From: a virus | DNA length: 64,000 nt | IMG/VR virus record: IMGVR_UViG_3300049893_000724 | Location: 32,001 to 96,000 of that record | Reading direction: 5' to 3' (one strand) | In this document: positions 1,481 through 51,084 of the stretch, piece after piece | Position numbering within the stretch: the stretch's first letter is position 1 | How the letters are laid out: each line of letters begins with the position of its first letter | The notes under the pieces: generated by a model | Seen by the model: only the letters and a program-made list of their open reading frames with translations | The model's database searches: none | Told to the model about the DNA's origin: nothing | Position numbers and translations under genes: made by a program

Positions 1481-1509
1481 ATTATAGTTAAAAAAAAGGG
1501 AGGTGTCAA
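1481..1509 (-). promoter_or_regulatory. sigma70-type early promoter
   Basis: Minus strand TTGACA (1509-1504), 17 nt, TATAAT (1486-1481). Confidence 0.85.
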
Positions 1510-1515
1510 CCTCCC
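1490..1515 (-). terminator. Intrinsic terminator whose loop is the -35 hexamer
   Basis: GGGAGG-TTGACA-CCTCCC followed by T8 on the minus strand. Confidence 0.8.
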
Positions 1516-1802: not shown

Positions 1803-1853
1803 CGTTCCTTCAGTCGGCGTTTGCGTTCGCTATTTGAGAATAGCGAATGAACG
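1803..1853 (-). ncRNA. Glutamine riboswitch-like aptamer 2 (Downstream-peptide / glnA type)
   Basis: CGTTCA-TTCGCTATT-CTCA-AATAGCGAA-CGCAAACGCCGACTGAAGGAACG; P1 CGTTC/GAACG, 9-bp P2, upstream of the DUF4278-like gene. Confidence 0.75.
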
Positions 1854-1855
1854 AT

Positions 1856-2105
1856 CCGTTCCGCGTCGGCTTACTTCCGTCCTATTCAGTTCAGCACCTA
1901 GTCACAACATCCTTTCGGAGTTCTAATAGCAGTCGGTCTTCCATCTTTTGGTAAACTACATCGTCGTTTTTAACAATGTCCATTAGTTCCCACGCCGCAT
2001 TGCAACTTATTCTAACTGGATATTCAGTTTTAAGTTGCGGTGAGGCAAAAGAAAGAAGTGGAACCCATGCTAAAAGCAAAAGTGCTTTAGTCATAGGATG
2101 AACGG
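1856..2105 (-). ncRNA. Glutamine riboswitch-like aptamer 1, split by an ORF in its P2 loop
   Basis: 5' half CCGTTCA-TCCTAT (2105-2093); 3' half ATAGGA-CGGAAGTAAGCCGACGCGGAACGG (1885-1856). Confidence 0.6.
1891..2094 (-). CDS. Hypothetical protein with signal-peptide-like N-terminus (67 aa)
   Basis: ORF track; hydrophobic N-terminus MTKALLLLAWVPLLSFA, two Cys. Confidence 0.65.
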   Translation of the reverse strand: MTKALLLLAWVPLLSFASPQLKTEYPVRISCNAAWELMDIVKNDDVVYQKMEDRLLLELRKDVVTRC

Positions 2106-2173
2106 TAGGGGATTATTATACCCCTATTCAACCTATATAGCAAGTTTTGTGTGTATTTCCTGATACAATTTTC

Positions 2174-7299: not shown

Positions 7300-7412
7300 A
7301 ACAGTTAGTAAGACCATCAGGGGAATGGTGGAGTTACTATGCTCCCCGCACCCTCAGCGGGGATATGAGAGACGTGATTTATACACCCATAGGTCTCGGT
7401 TAACGGGTGTTT
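7300..7412 (-). ncRNA. Structured psbA 5' leader, PhotoRC-II-like motif
   Basis: CCGAGACC...TCACGTCTCTCATATCCCCGCTGAGGGTGCGGGGAGCATAGTAACTCCACCATTCCCCTGATGGTCTTAC with several hairpins; resembles cyanophage psbA leaders as I recall them. Confidence 0.6.
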
Positions 7413-7460
7413 AACAATGTTAAGATTTATGAGAAATCCGTAACATTTGTTTACCTATTT

Positions 7461-31897: not shown

Positions 31898-33437
31898 TTT
31901 CGTAAGAGTAAGGATGCCAGTCTACTTTATTAAAAAATGTTTGCCAATACTGATATGTTTTTAAATCGTTTGGTGTTCCCCAACAAATATATTCATCGAT
32001 TTCAAAGTTTTTAACTTTATAACCAAGATCTATTGATTCATTCAAAAGACTATCTATATAAAATTCCCCATTCACTCTAACATTATTTTTATATAAACTC
32101 TCAAGAGATTTCAAATATATTTCTTTATTTCTAAAGAACATAGTTCCAACTACTGCATACTCTTCAATTGGATTTTCCCAAATAAAATCTTTAACATAAA
32201 CATTTTTTACATATCCTTGATCATCAACATCTAACCAAGAATACATATTTGGATTATAGAAACTAGTGTAATTTTGTCGATAACTCCAAACAATCACATC
32301 ATTATTAATATCTTCAACTAAAGAGAAAAATTTATCAACATCATAAAGCATTCCATTATCACACGCTGATACTAGAATTGAAGAATCTGCATTTACAACT
32401 TCAACTAATTTTTCAGTAGTACACGCCTGGCCAGGAAGAACTCCATCAATCCACAAAACCTCTCCTGCTGGATGTGGCGCTGTCTGTTCTCTCAAACAAG
32501 CATAGATTGTCCTATCAGTTTTGGGTAAACAGCGAACTGCTTGCTCAAACATATTCCTGCCATTTACGGGAATAAATGGTTTTGGTTGCTCATAACCTTC
32601 TTTAGAAAATCTACTACCAGCACCTGCCATAGGAAAAACTAGAGTGCAATTTTCTAGTCTAACTTCTTTCTGACCTTCTAATGCTTTTCTATAATAATTA
32701 GACCACTTCAAATACATATCAAGATCTAATGGCGTTCCCCACTGCAGCATATGAGGAACTTCATAAACTAATGATGTTAAATTATTTTTACAGAGGAGAT
32801 TATAAATTAAACTTACATAATATTCGCCATTCAAGTTAACATCATCATTCATCATTTCTTGGAAGAATCTTTTAACATATTCTCCTCTTCTAAAGTAATA
32901 AGTTCCAGTAGAAGCAAACTCAGACATTTTATCGTCTGTGAATGGTTGCTTTTCGCGGACCTCTAATATCTTATTGTTTTCATCAACCTTACAAAATGCA
33001 TAATTATCACTACCCAACATATGTGGATGAAATCCAGTATAGCAAATTACGCACCCATCACACTGAGTTTCATTTACAAATTTTTCAAAGTCTTGGTAGT
33101 CCCAATACATTGAAAAATCACAGTAATTAATTACAACTTGTTCATCATCTTCAATTTCATCAAAAATGTGAGATACTGTATAAACAGGTCCAAACTTATG
33201 AGATGGGATAACAAAAACTTTTTTGTTCTCACATATATTTTCTAATAAATTTAGAACATCAGTTTCTTCTGAGTTCTTATCATTTACAATGAATATGAAT
33301 TCAGAATCTTTTGGATACAGATCTACAATATGTTGAATTACAGTTTTTCCATCTATTTCTAACAAATACTTTGGCAGTTGATATCCAGCTCTAGAAAATC
33401 TACTGCTCATCCCAGACATGGGAATAATAATTTTCAT
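31878..33437 (-). CDS. Tandem sugar-nucleotidyltransferase (two NTP-transferase domains)
   Basis: IIPMSGMSSRF...PK and second copy VFPMAGAGSRF...PK; each domain has GE(Y/F)Y and WGTP. Confidence 0.85.
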   Translation of the reverse strand: MKIIIPMSGMSSRFSRAGYQLPKYLLEIDGKTVIQHIVDLYPKDSEFIFIVNDKNSEETDVLNLLENICENKKVFVIPSHKFGPVYTVSHIFDEIEDDEQVVINYCDFSMYWDYQDFEKFVNETQCDGCVICYTGFHPHMLGSDNYAFCKVDENNKILEVREKQPFTDDKMSEFASTGTYYFRRGEYVKRFFQEMMNDDVNLNGEYYVSLIYNLLCKNNLTSLVYEVPHMLQWGTPLDLDMYLKWSNYYRKALEGQKEVRLENCTLVFPMAGAGSRFSKEGYEQPKPFIPVNGRNMFEQAVRCLPKTDRTIYACLREQTAPHPAGEVLWIDGVLPGQACTTEKLVEVVNADSSILVSACDNGMLYDVDKFFSLVEDINNDVIVWSYRQNYTSFYNPNMYSWLDVDDQGYVKNVYVKDFIWENPIEEYAVVGTMFFRNKEIYLKSLESLYKNNVRVNGEFYIDSLLNESIDLGYKVKNFEIDEYICWGTPNDLKTYQYWQTFFNKVDWHPYSYENDYFTN

Positions 33438-33504: not shown

Positions 33505-33630
33505 ATTCAGGCTCGCCACTTGTTCTTTAACTGGAAACAAGAAACCAGGCGGGGTTGCCCCATCCGCACCACTTGCTCTTGAGAGAAGCAAGAAACTCAT
33601 AGGGGTCATTTTGACTCCACCACTTGATTT
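33505..33630 (-). ncRNA. manA/wcaG-like structured RNA
   Basis: Three CAAGTGGYG repeats, two GTTTCTTG..CAAG hairpin units and a GGGG-CAA-CCCC hairpin, upstream of nucleotide-sugar genes. Family name is from memory, not a search. Confidence 0.55.
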
Positions 33631-34394: not shown

Positions 34395-34467
34395 TGCTCC
34401 CTGCGAGGATCGAACTCGCCTATATCCGATTATGAGTCGGGTGCTTTCACCAGATAGCTAAAGGAGC
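34395..34467 (-). tRNA. tRNA with CAT anticodon (Ile2 or elongator Met)
   Basis: GCTCCTTTAGCTATCTGG...CCGA-CT-CAT-AA-TCGG...GTTCGATC...GGAGCA cloverleaf. Confidence 0.85.
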
Positions 34468-34471
34468 AAGG

Positions 34472-34543
34472 TAGGACCGCAGAGAATTGAACTCCGTTCA
34501 CACCGTTATAAGCAGTGGGCCTTAACCAATAGGCGACGATCCC
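34472..34543 (-). tRNA. tRNA-Ile(TAT)
   Basis: GGGATCG...CACTG-CT-TAT-AA-CGGTG...GTTCAATT...CGGTCCTA. Confidence 0.88.
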
Positions 34544-34551
34544 TTGCTAAA

Positions 34552-34782
34552 TTATGAACCTTCTTCGTGGTCAGTGTGAAGACGTATAAGTTCGTCATCC
34601 ACAACTGAATCCACTGCAAGTTTTATAGTTTCATTATAAGGGACTATTACTGCGTTCCTTTCTCCGTCTGTTATGATAAATGATTCTCCATTCTCAACTC
34701 TTTCTATCAGAGTATCAAAATTTGCTTGAAACTCTTCGACTGTAAATTTTTGGAGGTCCGTAATTTCTGGATACATTTTCAT
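34552..34782 (-). CDS. Phd/YefM antitoxin-like protein
   Basis: FTVEEFQANFDTLIERVENGESFIITDGERNAVIVP resembles the Phd N-terminal pattern; start trimmed to avoid tRNA-Pro. Confidence 0.6.
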   Translation of the reverse strand: MKMYPEITDLQKFTVEEFQANFDTLIERVENGESFIITDGERNAVIVPYNETIKLAVDSVVDDELIRLHTDHEEGS

Positions 34783-34799
34783 AAAGTGAAGTTTATGAG

Positions 34800-34873
34800 T
34801 CGGAATGACAGGATTCGAACCTGCGACATCTCGCTCCCAAAGCGAGTGCTCTACCAAACTGAGCTACATTCCG
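34800..34873 (-). tRNA. tRNA-Pro(TGG)
   Basis: CGGAATGTAGCTCAGTTTGG...CTCGC-TT-TGG-GA-GCGAG...GTTCGAATC. Confidence 0.95.
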
Positions 34874-35032
34874 TTATCTTTTAGTATAATAGCACTCGGT
34901 CTTTACGCTGTCAAGTCTATTCTTTTGTATTATGTATGAAAGCAATTCCCATAATGGGTAGAACAATAATACCAAATCCACAAGCACCTAACCAAATAGG
35001 ACTTGCTGCTAAAACTTCTACTAAGTGCAACA

Positions 35033-35251
35033 TTAGTATCCTCTCCAGGTTTTAAATTCGTGGTAAAAATATTGATCTACTGTATTATCCAGTGGGGCAT
35101 TATCTTCCCTATGTGCCCATTCTACACAAAATTCTACAATACGTCTATCGTGAAGTGAAGTGTGTCCCCACATTCTCACAAATGCTGATGCAGCAAAGTG
35201 GTATCTTTGTTTAGTGTGCGGTTCCATTTCCCTTATAATCTTTGGAGTCAT
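35033..35251 (-). CDS. Hypothetical protein (probable start MEPHTK, within ORF)
   Basis: ORF track. Confidence 0.6.
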   Translation of the reverse strand: MTPKIIREMEPHTKQRYHFAASAFVRMWGHTSLHDRRIVEFCVEWAHREDNAPLDNTVDQYFYHEFKTWRGY

Positions 35252-35333
35252 AGTATCCTCCTCGTGTTCCGAAATAGAGTGTTGCTAAAACAAAAGGAAC
35301 TGAAGCAAATAACAATAGTTTTCCCAATAACAT
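35211..35333 (-). CDS. ndhP: NDH-1 complex small subunit NdhP homologue (40 aa)
   Basis: MLLGKLLLFASVPFVLATLYFGTRGGYYDSKDYKGNGTAH*; one TM helix then FGTR.G.YD...Y.GNG.AH, matching the NdhP C-terminus as I recall it. TGATG overlap with PTOX. Not in the ORF track. Confidence 0.82.
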   Translation of the reverse strand: MLLGKLLLFASVPFVLATLYFGTRGGYYDSKDYKGNGTAH

Positions 35334-35833
35334 CAGACCATCTCCATTGCTCTTGAGAGTTCAATATAATGGTTCATCTCATCCACTGCGATCTCAGCGA
35401 TCTTGGTGTCCTCCTGATGGTCCCACAAGTAGTTGATATAAGTTTCGGTTGCGTGAAACTCAATCCCAGCATTCAAGTGATAAGCAGAAACGGGAGCAAT
35501 AAAATAATAACCCACCAAAATCCAATAATAGATGAGAACCAAATGATAAGCGAAAAAGCGATCAATCCAGCGATCTGCTCCGCCACGATGCTCCATTTCA
35601 ATAAGGTGTTCCGTTTCATTTAAGGTCTGTGCAAAGTGTTCTTTCATCAAATAATAATGAGATAAGTCTCTGAGTCCTAGTGATTCTTTGAGATGAAGCA
35701 CACTTACAAAAGCAAAGTAAGGTGCTCTGGCAATGGTCTCTAAAACCCAGAACCTTTGAATAGGAAAGTCACGATACAGAAAGTCAATGATTGATATCGT
35801 GACTGTTAGTATTGTATCGTTAAACTTTTTCAT
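35333..35833 (-). CDS. ptox: Plastoquinol terminal oxidase (PTOX)
   Basis: RFWVLETIARAPYF, NETEHL, EFHATETY, DEMNH di-iron ligands. Confidence 0.93.
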   Translation of the reverse strand: MKKFNDTILTVTISIIDFLYRDFPIQRFWVLETIARAPYFAFVSVLHLKESLGLRDLSHYYLMKEHFAQTLNETEHLIEMEHRGGADRWIDRFFAYHLVLIYYWILVGYYFIAPVSAYHLNAGIEFHATETYINYLWDHQEDTKIAEIAVDEMNHYIELSRAMEMV

Positions 35834-35919
35834 TGTGGATATGCGTGATTAAGTCCCCAGATAATAAAAAGTCCAATCGCACCAAAAAGTGTCATTGCTG
35901 TGTAGATAGTTTTACTCAT
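35830..35919 (-). CDS. Small membrane peptide (29 aa)
   Basis: MSKTIYTAMTLFGAIGLFIIWGLNHAYPQ*; ATGA overlap with the PTOX start. Confidence 0.55.
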   Translation of the reverse strand: MSKTIYTAMTLFGAIGLFIIWGLNHAYPQ

Positions 35920-36202
35920 CTTCTTCGTCCTCGTAAGTAGATGGTTCTTCGAATAGTTCGTCTATCTTTTGTTGTAAAACTCTGCGTTGTAGTTGTTCGA
36001 TATCTTCTTCGGTGATTCTTAACACTAGTAACGGGTCTCCTGGTTTAACGTCGTTTAACTCTGGATGTTTTACTTTTGGACTTTTAGAATACCCATATTG
36101 AGCATTCATAATCATCCAACCTTGCACAATCATTGAGAGTGCGATACCCACAAGTACAAACCAAGGAACTAAAAATATTAGTGGAGTGTAATGTTGAGCC
36201 AT
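35912..36202 (-). CDS. Membrane-anchored hypothetical protein
   Basis: N-terminal TM, KHPELND..PGDPLLVL. Confidence 0.7.
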   Translation of the reverse strand: MAQHYTPLIFLVPWFVLVGIALSMIVQGWMIMNAQYGYSKSPKVKHPELNDVKPGDPLLVLRITEEDIEQLQRRVLQQKIDELFEEPSTYEDEEDE

Positions 36203-36381
36203 GGGAACACAGGTGGAATGACCCCTATGAGTCTTAGTAATCCCTCAGCAAATAAAGCAAGAACCACCCAACCGACGCACATACTAATGATAGAAGCATT
36301 ACGGTTGTGTCTTCTGATAGCATCATCGATCATCTCCTGAACTTCAGAACGTGTAATAAACTCTTCTTGTTCGTGCATCAT
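36178..36381 (-). CDS. Small membrane hypothetical protein
   Basis: ORF track; C-terminal TM. Confidence 0.7.
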   Translation of the reverse strand: MMHEQEEFITRSEVQEMIDDAIRRHNRNASIISMCVGWVVLALFAEGLLRLIGVIPPVFPWLNITLH

Positions 36382-36527
36382 TTCTCGTCTCCAAGAAATT
36401 TTGCGAGAGGATCTCTTTTGGTTTTTAAAATTTCACACGCTCTATAGTAAAACATATTGTTGGTGTTGCCAGAAGCTTCAAAAGTTGCCTTGATCTTCAC
36501 CCAGTTATCATAGGTGTGTTGATCCAT
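36378..36527 (-). CDS. Small hypothetical protein (49 aa)
   Basis: Manual translation MDQHTYDNWVKIKATFEASGNTNNMFYYRACEIL...; ATGA-coupled. Confidence 0.6.
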   Translation of the reverse strand: MDQHTYDNWVKIKATFEASGNTNNMFYYRACEILKTKRDPLAKFLGDEK

Positions 36528-36641
36528 GAGGTTTATACTTGTGATACTACTATATACTAGTCACAAGTATTTCACAGTCAACATTTTGTGTTCATTACGT
36601 AACACTGTTGAAGAAAATGTTAAATTTGTAACTTATCTAAA

Positions 36642-36726
36642 CGGAAAGGGTGGGATTCGAACCCACGGATGCTTTCACATCGCTAGTTTTCAAGACTAGA
36701 GCCTTCAACCACTCGACCACCTTTCC
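36642..36726 (-). tRNA. tRNA-Ser(TGA)
   Basis: GGAAAGGTGGTCGAGTGG...CTAGT-CT-TGA-AA-ACTAG, long variable arm. Confidence 0.95.
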
Positions 36727-36737
36727 AGTGGGGAGGT

Positions 36738-36989
36738 TCAGCGAACCTCAAAGTCCAAACGCTTTACTTTGCGTTGGCGTCTTGCCTCTTGCCAGGCAAT
36801 ATCTTGTGAAGAGAGAACATTGGTTTTTTGTTCTTTCTGAATAGAGTTTAGCATTACAACTCGTGATAAGTCAACTGCGGAAATCTTATCACCACGAATT
36901 GTTGCCATATTTGGACAACCACAAGTGATTGTTTTCGTTGGGTGTCCAGTAAGTTCTTTATTGCAATCTTTGCATCTTATTGAAATCAT
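36738..36989 (-). CDS. Small Cys-rich hypothetical protein
   Basis: CKDC and CGC motifs. Confidence 0.7.
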   Translation of the reverse strand: MISIRCKDCNKELTGHPTKTITCGCPNMATIRGDKISAVDLSRVVMLNSIQKEQKTNVLSSQDIAWQEARRQRKVKRLDFEVR

Positions 36990-37004
36990 TGTTCTTCATC
37001 CTAC

Positions 37005-37439
37005 TCATTGTAAATGAGATCTTAACTGCCAAACAAATTTACCGTGAGACTCCATTAAATCTTGAACTAGATTTGCAGTTGCGTATTGCTTTTGCCCTTC
37101 AGACTCTTCTGAAATCTCCTGCATTAGTTCACAAAACTTTTCGTTGTTCTCAAGCAGTTCCTGAAGCATTTCTTTTGCTCCTGTTGAACTTGCTGCTTCT
37201 TTAATCTGAGTAACCTCAAGCATTCTTGAAAGAGAACTGAGAGGTTTTACATTCAGATAACGCATATGTTCTGAGAGACGATCAATCTCTTCAAACATAG
37301 TTTCGTACTGTCCACCAAAGAGTTGATGAAGTTGAGTGAAATCTTCACCAACTACATTCCAATGAAATGCCCAAGTTTTATGAAACAAAACAAAAAGTGA
37401 TGACTGAGCATCACTCAAGAGTTTAAATAGTTTTTCCAT
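37005..37439 (-). CDS. dps: Dps / ferritin-like DNA-protection protein
   Basis: HKTWAFHWNVVGEDFTQLHQLF, EIDRLSEHMR. Confidence 0.9.
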   Translation of the reverse strand: MEKLFKLLSDAQSSLFVLFHKTWAFHWNVVGEDFTQLHQLFGGQYETMFEEIDRLSEHMRYLNVKPLSSLSRMLEVTQIKEAASSTGAKEMLQELLENNEKFCELMQEISEESEGQKQYATANLVQDLMESHGKFVWQLRSHLQ

Positions 37440-37467
37440 TATACTCTTTTTTTAAATATTTATCAAG

Positions 37468-37539
37468 TGGGCGATGACGGATTCGAACCGCCGACCAATT
37501 GCGTGTAAAGCAACTGCGCTACCGCTGCGCTAATCGCCC
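37468..37539 (-). tRNA. tRNA-Val(TAC)
   Basis: GGGCGATTAGCGCAGCGG...GTTGC-TT-TAC-AC-GCAAT. Confidence 0.95.
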
Positions 37540-37543
37540 GTGT

Positions 37544-37672
37544 TATGTTTCCAGTAGCCACTCTTATCTCCCATAAGGAAGATGTAGGCATCGAACCTAC
37601 AAAGGACAGTCTCTAACGAAACCGCTGGGAATTCCACCCAGAACATAGTTGGAAGAACCAAAGTACTTCCAA
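37544..37672 (-). ncRNA. tRNA-like structured RNA of unknown identity
   Basis: T-arm TGTAGG-TTCGATG-CCTACA plus three further hairpins between tRNA-Asn and tRNA-Val. Confidence 0.5.
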
Positions 37673-37744
37673 CTCCCCCTCCTGGATTCGAACCAGGGAC
37701 CAAATGATTAACAGTCATCTGCGCTACCGCTGCGCCAAGGAGGA
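37673..37744 (-). tRNA. tRNA-Asn(GTT)
   Basis: TCCTCCTTGGCGCAGCGG...GATGA-CT-GTT-AA-TCATT. Confidence 0.95.
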
Positions 37745-37832
37745 ATGAGGAGAAGGAGTGCTCTTGGGCGAACCCGCAGGATCACTTCTCCTATTGGCGT
37801 CTTTCTAGGCTATCTGCCTAGCGACTACCAAG

Positions 37833-37903
37833 AGCGGGTAACCGGGTTCGAACCGGTGATTCCAACTTGGAAGGATGGCGTGTTACCGCTACACCATACC
37901 CGC
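37833..37903 (-). tRNA. tRNA-Gly(TCC)
   Basis: GCGGGTATGGTGTAGCGG...CCATC-CT-TCC-AA-GTTGG. Confidence 0.93.
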
Positions 37904-37947
37904 AGGTGAGAAACATAGAGGGGTGGTGGTGTCTCTACGTTTCTCAT

Positions 37948-37982
37948 ATGACAATTATAAGGTGTGGATTTATAATTGTCAA
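37948..37982. promoter_or_regulatory. Palindromic sigma70 promoter
   Basis: Minus TTGACA-17-TATAAT; plus ATGACA-17-TATAAT; 12-bp perfect inverted repeat. Confidence 0.75.
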
Positions 37983-37983
37983 G

Positions 37984-38065
37984 TGTCGATGAAAGGACTT
38001 GAACCTTCACAGAATACTCTACTGGAACCTAAACCCAGCGCGTCTACCAATTCCGCCACATCGAC
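37984..38065 (-). tRNA. tRNA-Leu(TAG)
   Basis: GTCGATGTGGCGGAATTGG...CTGGG-TT-TAG-GT-TCCAG, long variable arm. Confidence 0.95.
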
Positions 38066-38367
38066 TAATTACGAAGTTCTACGTGAACCTCACGATGACA
38101 GTTAGCACAAAGTATAGAACACTTGTCTAACTCTGCTTGTATTTTTTTCCAACTCCAAAGTCGCATCTTAGTCCAAGATGCTTCTTTTTCTATTGGATTA
38201 AGATGGTGAAATTCTAAAACATCTGGATACTTATCATATCCACATCTTTCACATTTTCCACCTTTGTATTCTACGGCATCAAGTTTTCTTTGACGCCATC
38301 TTTGAATACAATACTGATTGAAGGCAGATTTCTCTTCCTCCGTCATCAGTTTATATGGTTTACTCAT
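38065..38367 (-). CDS. HNH endonuclease (free-standing, homing-type)
   Basis: CERCG, LEFHHLNP, CSILCANCHREVH. Confidence 0.85.
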   Translation of the reverse strand: MSKPYKLMTEEEKSAFNQYCIQRWRQRKLDAVEYKGGKCERCGYDKYPDVLEFHHLNPIEKEASWTKMRLWSWKKIQAELDKCSILCANCHREVHVELRN

Positions 38368-38392
38368 TAGATTAGAATGTATAAGTCTAATC

Positions 38393-38400
38393 TATTTATA
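38393..38400 (-). promoter_or_regulatory. T4 late promoter
   Basis: Exact TATAAATA ending 26 nt upstream of the HNH ATG. Confidence 0.75.
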
Positions 38401-38407
38401 AACCAAA

Positions 38408-38480
38408 CAGGCACGGAGAGGGTCGAACTCCCAATCGACATCTTAGAAGGATGCTGCATTATCCATTATGCTACGTGCCC
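38408..38480 (-). tRNA. tRNA-Arg(TCT)
   Basis: GGGCACGTAGCATAATGG...GCATC-CT-TCT-AA-GATGT. Confidence 0.95.
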
Positions 38481-38572
38481 AAAAGACCTCCTGGTTTGTG
38501 CATCGTTGAGAGGCATAGGAGGGGCAGGACTTACACGGAGTTTGGACCCCCGCTGCCTATGAGAGTATTGTA

Positions 38573-51011: not shown

Positions 51012-51084
51012 TGGAGAATAGGAGACTCGAACTCCTGACACCCGCCTTGCAAAGGCGATGCTCTACCAACTGAGCTAATTCCCC
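51012..51084 (-). tRNA. tRNA-Ala(TGC)
   Basis: GGGGAATTAGCTCAGTTGG...TCGCC-TT-TGC-AA-GGCGG; G3:U70 pair. Confidence 0.96.

Follow-up and report, generated by a model that had tools for sequence, protein, structure and literature searches.

Riboswitches are usually seen as compact 5′ leaders that are folded before the gene under their control. In cyanobacteria, the glutamine riboswitch turns on genes encoding DUF4278 proteins, and it has been proposed that the ligand melts a helix that is attached to the P1 stem and blocks the ribosome-binding site (PMC6212724). glnA elements are also found in phages, and the papers that deal with them treat them as ordinary leaders (PMC2864571, PMC9964418). 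Here, we describe an array of two glnA-type units encoded on the minus strand of a 64,000-nucleotide (nt) stretch of viral DNA (positions 32,001 to 96,000 of IMG/VR record IMGVR_UViG_3300049893_000724; this whole stretch is called the window below, and all positions refer to it unless another contig is named). The source of the window is a T4-like cyanomyovirus, whose DNA relatives are Synechococcus and Prochlorococcus phages. In this array, the P2 loop of the first unit contains a whole 67-codon open reading frame (ORF), whose start codon is part of the P2 helix itself, and the P1 strands of the two units are best read as pairing crosswise.

A sequence-only reading of the window had drawn attention to the locus, and the elements that it listed, namely a TATAAT box, the P1 and P2 strands, the ORF, the ATAGGA strand, the second unit and a DUF4278-like gene, are all found on the minus strand where it had placed them. 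The class of sensor is known; the architecture, with a gene in the aptamer and what we read as interlocked cores, is not. Full-text literature searches returned no account of a gene inside a riboswitch aptamer, in agreement with that reading, which knew of no described layout of this kind, and no description of interlocked glutamine aptamers.

Layout of the Array

On the minus strand, the array opens with CGUUC (2104-2100), the 5′ strand of the outer P1 helix, whose likeliest partner is the GAACG at 1803-1807 and whose same-unit alternative is the GAACG at 1857-1861. The sequence-only reading had added a sixth P1 pair, C2105-G1856, which is not conserved, since all four bases occur on its 5′ side in relatives. 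A junction A (2099) leads to UCCUAU (TCCTAT in the DNA; 2098-2093), the 5′ strand of the first P2 helix, P2a. As the same reading had pointed out, this strand overlaps the start codon of the nested ORF, the A and U of whose AUG (2094-2092) it holds. The ORF (67 amino acids (aa); 2094-1891) is followed by the spacer ACTGA, and 5 nt past its stop codon comes the 3′ strand of P2a, AUAGGA (ATAGGA; 1885-1880), which runs into CGGAAGTAAGCCGACGCG. The first core strand (1879-1862), whose counterpart in compact relatives aligns with the RF01739 consensus, comprises CGGAAGUAA, a glnA-type E-loop motif, and then GCCGACGCG.

At the boundary of the two units, GAACG (1861-1857) and CGUUC (1853-1849) can form an inner hairpin whose loop, GAU, is the linker between the units (GAT in the DNA); its pair probability is about 0.76 in the unconstrained ensemble, computed without ligand. 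The second unit is made of CGTTC (1853-1849), an A, the P2b hairpin, CGCAAACGCCGACTGAAG and a terminal GAACG (1807-1803). P2b is a compact hairpin of 9 base pairs (bp) between UUCGCUAUU and AAUAGCGAA, with the loop CUCA (1847-1826) and a pair probability of about 1. It is followed by the second core strand, CGCAAACGCCGACUGAAG, and by the GAACG that provides the 3′ strand of the outer P1 (together 1825-1803).

Directly 3′ of P1 lies the expression platform (1802-1778), in which CUCUUUAA (1802-1795) pairs with UUAAGGAG (1785-1778). The latter contains the Shine-Dalgarno sequence of the downstream gene, and the probability of this anti-Shine-Dalgarno helix is about 1; described from the end of the second unit, CTCTTTAA comes directly after it and can pair with TTAAGGAG, the Shine-Dalgarno region of this 50-aa gene. 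The minimum free energy (MFE) fold of the 346-nt RNA includes the long-range P1 and P2 pairs, with a z-score of -4.15.

Assignment to the Glutamine Riboswitches

At curated cut-offs, Rfam gave no match at 1800-2110. At relaxed thresholds, the second unit aligns over its full length with the type 1 glutamine riboswitch model RF01739, with 33.6 bits (E = 2e-5) for a cut-off of 35. The first unit of the window cannot be scored in this manner, its halves being 219 nt apart because of the insert in P2. A natural short-loop aptamer, from contig L087, was therefore taken as a stand-in for a spliced version of this unit: its P1, its TCCTA/TAGGA stem and its core are those of the first unit, save one non-conserved base, and it reaches 38.1 bits. 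The first unit of the cultured phage DSL-LC02 scores 35.6 bits on the same model. Orthologous leaders in three other cultured phages, S-PM2, S-CREM1 and P-TIM68, are compact tandems of the same strands and match either RF01739 or RF01704, the type 2 glutamine riboswitch (Downstream-peptide) model; that of S-CREM1 was annotated as glnA by its authors, with 44 bits (PMC9964418). RF01704 itself has no match in the window at E <= 10. Relatives score 20.6-28.8 bits on it, below its cut-off of 33 (the compact first units of S-PM2 and P-TIM68 giving weak matches of 24.6 and 28.8 bits, respectively), and their alignments show non-standard pairs in the 3′ hairpin, which in type 2 encloses GGAACG and defines the pseudoknot.

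Several hallmarks of RF01739 are present in the array: the CGUUC/GAACG P1, the junction A, a P2 hairpin immediately after it, and a position in the 5′ leader of a DUF4278-like gene. The canonical glnA motifs, ACGGAAGUA (E-loop) and GAAGGAACG (3′), are both there as well, but on different units, since the first unit lacks GAAGG before GAACG and the second lacks GGAAGUA. The P3 hairpin that RF01739 has between the E-loop and GAAGG is not seen, Rfam alignments giving only one or two pairs at this place. Altogether, the scores of the second unit and of the L087 aptamer uphold the assignment first made from the letters of the window, and the array is supported as a set of glnA-type glutamine-riboswitch elements, for which glutamine binding is predicted.

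The Nested Gene and its Protein Family

Homologues of the nested ORF form 251 clusters of 66-68 aa in public data. Among 57 distinct nucleotide versions, the median pairwise rates of nonsynonymous (dN) and synonymous (dS) substitution are 0.13 and 0.46, with a dN/dS of 0.29. Judged by this substitution pattern, the nested ORF is a real gene under purifying selection, and the proposal that a whole gene (2094-1891) sits in a P2 loop, between TCCTAT and ATAGGA, holds good. Pfam and PHROGs have no family for its product, and a search of the ESM Atlas retrieved only its own viral cluster. The N-terminus of the protein looks like a Sec signal peptide, and an AlphaFold model, with a predicted local distance difference test score (pLDDT) of 70, has helices at residues 31-43 and 49-64 between two cysteines.

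These traits are shared by a wider superfamily, whose members begin with a short hydrophobic stretch and have two helices and, as invariant residues, two cysteines that correspond to C31 and C67 of the window protein. A profile search with this superfamily collected 265 representative clusters, nearly all of 47-110 aa. All of the ORFs found in P2 loops, in either core, align into this single two-cysteine superfamily. A paralogue of 55 aa is encoded in the same genome outside the window (G000:C1:177094-177249, minus strand); it is preceded by an AGGAGA ribosome-binding site and has no aptamer halves.

Recurrence of the Wrapped Layout and Evidence for its Selection

The split layout was found in hundreds of cyanophage contigs, a recurrence that argues against a chance arrangement. 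A scan for inter-unit junctions retrieved 120 phage contigs, in which 76 aptamer units have P2 "loops" of 138-243 nt; all 76 are filled by an ORF that begins 3-7 nt into the 5′ strand of P2. In DSL-LC02, it is the second unit that carries the nested ORF, and arrays are found with an ORF in the first unit only, in the second only, in both or in neither. Loci were also retrieved from the protein alone, with four subfamily alignments (a profile of all subfamilies being too divergent), and then checked for flanking halves, a copy being called wrapped when it had both halves, at least four P2 pairs and a GGAAC tail. Both halves surround 107 of 111, 116 of 119, 77 of 91 and 52 of 76 copies of the four subfamilies (352 of 397 in all), and many of the unwrapped calls are parsing problems or have just three contiguous P2 pairs.

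The position of the gene relative to the helix is nearly constant: of 268 distinct units with an ORF, 265 place the A of its ATG at nucleotide 4-8 of P2. At the other end, the frame enters the aptamer core and finds its stop codon there in 166 of the 268, giving the C-termini DAKAD* and GRK*. In the subfamily of the window, the non-coding 3′ strand of P2, ATAGGA, is invariant in 42 distinct contexts, and the bases just upstream of it vary freely. Across subfamilies, 94 distinct pairs of P2 strands were collected, with C-G, U-A and U-G at position 3 and A-U, U-A and C-G at position 4. Contiguous P2 pairing averages 5.77 bp, compared to 3.52 +/- 0.13 when 3′ strands are shuffled among units, in a sample where the call of a unit needs at least four P2 pairs and pairing at positions 1-4 is to that extent inflated. 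Some units have a longer P2, of 11-14 bp, which the first codons of the gene form with its last ones.

These data bear on an explanation in which the repeats are recombination scars: near-identical aptamer repeats would shuffle small genes in the manner of the promoter/stem-loop (PeSL) cassettes of T4-like phages, long-range closure around a gene would be functionless, and regulation would be left to the compact unit beside the ribosome-binding site. The existence of every array type speaks for it, as do the occurrence of one subfamily in either position, the presence of close relatives that differ just by the ORF (e.g., S-CREM1 and the window), an in-frame ATG...TAA mini-ORF (MGRK) in some compact units, as would remain after an internal deletion, and the documented shuffling of genes by PeSLs (PMC4122927). 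Scars should decay, yet ATAGGA is invariant beside a variable spacer; in addition, P2 covaries between subfamilies and is extended in some units, the ATG keeps a fixed place within it, and the outer helix covaries across the nested gene (see below). We hence regard scars devoid of function as very unlikely, keeping in mind that an RNA function and recombination are not mutually exclusive.

Two further observations concern the gain and loss of these genes. The compact first units of S-PM2 (L001 1263-1303) and DSL-LC02 (L003 988-1033) carry the mini-ORF ATG GGA CGN AAG TAA (MGRK*), which is in the frame of the GRK* ends of one nested subfamily, as it would be if compact units had lost a nested gene in frame. 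At L138 (1500-1890), two genes of the family stand back to back with one 5′ half; the middle and final 3′ halves are absent, and a hairpin follows, so that this locus has the look of an array in decay.

The glnA 3′ motif was also searched for in genomes of bacteria and archaea: among the 120 matches listed, a limited sample, P2 regions extend up to about 100 nt, and no ORF-bearing unit was seen. P2 is thus a naturally tolerant site, and the nested gene has so far been seen in cyanophage contigs only.

Evidence for Crosswise Pairing of the P1 Strands

In 326 of 331 tandem pairs, the P1-type strands follow each other as CGTTC, GAACG, CGTTC and GAACG, with a linker that is almost always of 3-5 nt. 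Departures from this order are informative. CGTTC/CAACG/CGTTG/GAACG is found at L384, L421-423, L443, L649, L668 and L685, CGTTT/CAACG/CGTTG/AAACG at L674, L808, L811 and others, and CGTTT/GAACG/CGTTC/AAACG at L819. In all three patterns, crosswise pairing (first strand with fourth, second with third) is perfect, and the junction-proximal pair is mismatched in both same-unit helices; the outer helix covaries across the nested gene. Single-side variants were sought with two loose junction patterns, and none stands in a genuine aptamer context among the matches listed: these patterns retrieve mostly unrelated DNA, and a filter for aptamer context leaves only double variants among those matches.

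The sequence-only reading had instead drawn a pair of tandem aptamers with a P1 apiece, the first closed across the gene and the second compact. Taken as independent, they would act additively or cooperatively on the downstream gene. Several points are in keeping with this picture. Tandem glnA RNAs are known (PMC2864571), Rfam aligns individual units internally with 33-38 bits, the MFE fold of the window RNA has the same-unit P1 for the first unit, and apparently solitary units, such as that of L242, could pair only internally. The nearest-neighbor model does not discriminate between the two folds of the window RNA, which are isoenergetic (-93.5 kcal/mol for same-unit and -94.1 kcal/mol for crosswise pairing). 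Discrimination comes from the natural compensatory variants, every one of which breaks both same-unit P1 helices and keeps the crosswise ones. Moreover, neither unit of the window alone has both canonical motifs, and ACGGAAGUA and GAAGGAACG come together in one core, the outer one, only under the crosswise fold. Finally, a linker of 3-5 nt nearly throughout the 331 pairs is what a hairpin loop would have. Two independent aptamers are for these reasons considered unlikely. P2, as that reading drew it, covaries across subfamilies; P1 covaries crosswise and not within its own unit.

The array is thus best read, from comparison of these sequences, as a single interlocked structure made of an outer helix, an inner hairpin and two P2 helices, rather than as two separate aptamers. 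The interlocked reading would explain why the two canonical motifs are united in the outer core alone, and also why the P3 hairpin is missing.

Unusual arrays were noted in addition. L218, L220, L227, L231 and L277 have, in place of 3 nt, a linker of about 21 nt with a small hairpin (ACCTA/TAGGT), which fits a linker that forms the apical loop of the inner helix. L821, L829, L857, L859 and L862 are orphan units in which the first unit is replaced by the end of an upstream gene and the mismatched CGTTG ... AAACG is kept; they look like relics of a crosswise lineage.

Proposed Mechanism

On the whole, we think it probable that an early transcript of the cyanophage, about 620 nt long, begins here with a nitrogen-sensing leader, in which a glutamine riboswitch forms one interlocked double core and closes its P2 around a translated gene. 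The outer P1 would pair CGUUC (2104-2100) with GAACG (1807-1803), and the middle strands (1861-1857 and 1853-1849) would form a hairpin. The second core would then occupy the usual position of P3, and the P2 of the outer core (UCCUAU/AUAGGA) would close around the 67-codon gene, with the AUG in its 5′ strand. The nested AUG, inside P2a, is not preceded by a Shine-Dalgarno sequence and lies about 25 nt or less from the likely 5′ end of the RNA. A 30S ribosomal subunit on this codon would cover the 5′ strands of both the outer P1 and P2a, and initiation and folding of the aptamer would therefore be mutually exclusive. When glutamine is high, the folded core would mask the nested start codon, and the CUCUUUAA/UUAAGGAG helix beside P1 would melt, as in the gifB riboswitch, thereby switching on the DUF4278 gene. 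When glutamine is low, the 5′ end would be open, the nested gene translated and the downstream ribosome-binding site sequestered. One ligand would in this way have opposite effects on two genes. The 3′ half is made about 220 nt later than the 5′ half, so that kinetics may also enter into the decision. The suggestion of the sequence-only reading that one ligand could control two genes, and that translation of the inner ORF could disrupt the aptamer, is plausible in this light.

A more elaborate version is conceivable, though we hold it to be somewhat less likely than its contrary. It would make the leader a natural bistable translational toggle, i.e., an interlocked, domain-swapped double aptamer that binds two ligands and has one helix closed around a translated gene. 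On each mRNA, glutamine would choose between the nested two-cysteine protein, made at low nitrogen, and an IF17-like regulator of glutamine synthetase, made at high nitrogen. No riboswitch known before would have an aptamer that surrounds a gene under its control.

Alternatively, the nested gene could be translated constitutively, with ribosomes repeatedly unfolding and resetting the aptamer, as on a leader peptide, and possibly passing on to the downstream gene in those units whose stop codon is in the core; glutamine would then control the DUF4278 gene only. Leader ORFs within sensing leaders are known, mgtL being one example. In the 166 ORF-bearing units with a stop codon in the core, terminating ribosomes must unfold that core, and ribosomes can load before the aptamer forms, as the 5′ half is made 140-225 nt ahead of the 3′ half. 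The window is not among these units, its ORF ending 5 nt before the P2 strand. The nested product, moreover, belongs to a conserved protein family under purifying selection and is not a short regulatory peptide, and the constant presence of the start codon within P2 suggests that this codon is itself a regulated target. A sensor coupled to translation in this manner is accordingly given a low probability.

Contigs from RNA libraries of four studies cover 1640-2120 and span the boundaries between ORF and aptamer (e.g., 1789-1931, 1862-1987 and 1958-2118), which is compatible with a single RNA that carries both the ORF and the cores. These libraries were available as contigs only, each covering a small share of the stretch, and transcript ends, strand and expression level cannot be read from them. 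A contig end at 2118 that bears an adapter was rejected as evidence for a start site.

Several points weigh against the probable mechanism, in which an interlocked glutamine riboswitch closes P2 around a regulated gene. Regarding the fold, the long-range P2a has a probability of only about 0.2 in the unconstrained ensemble, and the anti-Shine-Dalgarno helix, clear in the leader type of the window, is not so in all other leader types. Regarding P1, the strands of the window are those of the consensus, so that crosswise pairing rests on variants in other contigs, and these variants perhaps stem from only two mutational events followed by recombination. About 20 of the copies retrieved from the protein have only three contiguous P2 pairs, and some members of the family are free-standing: at L181 and L188 a terminator replaces the 3′ half, and L410, L412, L414 and L436, like the paralogue in the same genome, have no halves. 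The two-cysteine protein hence does not strictly require the wrap, which is still the norm. The RNA-library contigs are blind to transcript ends and may include DNA carry-over. Lastly, the direction in which the nested gene would be regulated is one that we purely infer.

Locus and Transcription Unit

Upstream of the array, a sigma-70-type promoter (TTGCTA-17 nt-TATAAT; 2143-2115, minus strand, with TATAAT at 2120-2115) has 10 of 12 consensus matches. Its -10 box lies in the loop of an inverted repeat, TAGGGG/CCCCTA (arms at 2121-2126 and 2106-2111, minus strand). Most arrays have this inverted repeat conserved in front of them, with arms that change in a compensatory manner (GGGG/CCCC, GAGG/CCTC, GGAG/CTCC), and it has at least five pairs in 136 of 183 cases. 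An NtcA-type box, GTA-N8-TAC (2153-2166, minus strand), is located about 60 nt upstream of the first CGTTC. Of 297 distinct arrays, 221 have such a box within 100 nt upstream, in most cases between -70 and -55, versus 8 in shuffled controls. In the window, it is separated from TATAAT by 32 nt instead of the canonical 22 nt, and a start site placed from this TATAAT is to that extent tentative.

Downstream of the array, the minus strand encodes a 50-aa DUF4278-like (IF17-like) protein with two YRG motifs (1770-1618). The window protein itself scores 17.9 bits on PF14105, the DUF4278 model (E = 0.004), below the cut-off of 25.3 bits; 36 of 40 orthologues match this model at E <= 0.01, with a best value of 3e-7. 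A YRG gene is found 3′ of at least 246 of 299 arrays. The stop codon of the DUF4278-like gene overlaps, in an ATGA, the start of a basic, lysine-rich ORF of 32 aa (1621-1523, minus strand) that has only weak PHROG matches. An intrinsic terminator (1515-1498, minus strand) follows, and with these two elements (1498-1621) the transcription unit comes to its end. The hairpin loop of this terminator doubles as the -35 box, TTGACA, of the promoter that comes next (TTGACA-17-TATAAT, with 12 of 12 matches; 1481-1515, minus strand).

Near the riboswitch locus, the window carries speD (2500-2174, minus strand) and thyX (1311-580). Elsewhere in the window, Rfam matches on the minus strand comprise PhotoRC-II (7329-7422; 83.8 bits), wcaG RNA (33505-33600; 103.9 bits) and the abiF small RNA (38486-38522; 49.3 bits), in addition to ten tRNA genes (34395-38480 and 51012-51084).

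Implications

Compared to leaders that fold ahead of the gene they control, this sensor could complete its fold only once the polymerase has passed through an entire gene, whose start codon would be part of the sensor. Ligand sensing and translation would for this reason be physically coupled, in a manner that has not been described. A further suggestion of the crosswise pairing is that, in cyanophages, the common "tandem" glutamine aptamers make up one interlocked double sensor, which would alter how they are modelled, searched for and crystallised. In practice, covariance-model scans overlook such elements, and in hundreds of phage genomes the RNA carries no annotation from gene callers. Finally, the combination of an IF17-like factor, a two-cysteine family and an upstream NtcA-type box points to control of host nitrogen metabolism by the phage.

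Comparison with Known Systems

The closest described relative of the array is the type 1 glutamine riboswitch (RF01739), exemplified by the gifB/IF17 leader of Synechocystis, with which it shares the strands CGUUC-A, ACGGAAGUA and GAAGGAACG and a P2 that starts straight after the junction A (PMC6212724, PMC2864571). A downstream DUF4278 or DUF4278-like gene, tandem occurrence and a ribosome-site-blocking helix on P1 are likewise common to both. In contrast to RF01739, P2 in these arrays encloses a translated gene of 50-69 codons whose start codon is in the helix, a second core takes the place of the P3 hairpin, and the P1 strands of the units would pair crosswise.

The type 2 riboswitch (RF01704) is resembled chiefly by the inner core, through CGUUCA ... 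CGCA ... GGAACGG, and also by its setting, as RF01704 precedes short DUF4278-type genes in marine picocyanobacteria and the gene downstream of the array is DUF4278-like. The array differs from it by scores under the 33-bit cut-off and by the non-standard pairs with which the pseudoknot-defining 3′ hairpin aligns. We know of no nested gene in this class.

Outside the glutamine riboswitches, the mgtA leader of Salmonella, which senses Mg2+, contains mgtL, a regulatory peptide of 17 codons located between stem-loops. As with mgtL, an ORF lies within a ligand-sensing 5′ leader, and translation is proposed here to compete with alternative RNA structures; unlike mgtL, the ORF encodes a conserved protein family under purifying selection and is placed within one aptamer helix. 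Group I introns carry ORFs for homing endonucleases in their peripheral loops, and there, too, a protein is encoded in the terminal loop of a structured-RNA helix that must still close. Those introns are ribozymes with a selfish mobile gene, whereas the phage arrays would be metabolite sensors with one dedicated family of small proteins and a start codon in the helix.

Lastly, the PeSL cassettes of T4-like phages are DNA motifs made of a promoter and a terminator (PMC2839356, PMC4122927). They resemble the arrays in that short conserved regulatory repeats flank small variable genes in T4-like genomes, with an inverted repeat at the -10 box, and by analogy with PeSLs the repeats described here plausibly drive the gain and loss of nested ORFs. 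Unlike PeSLs, however, the repeats of the arrays form an RNA fold, putatively ligand-binding, whose helices covary across the gene that they enclose.

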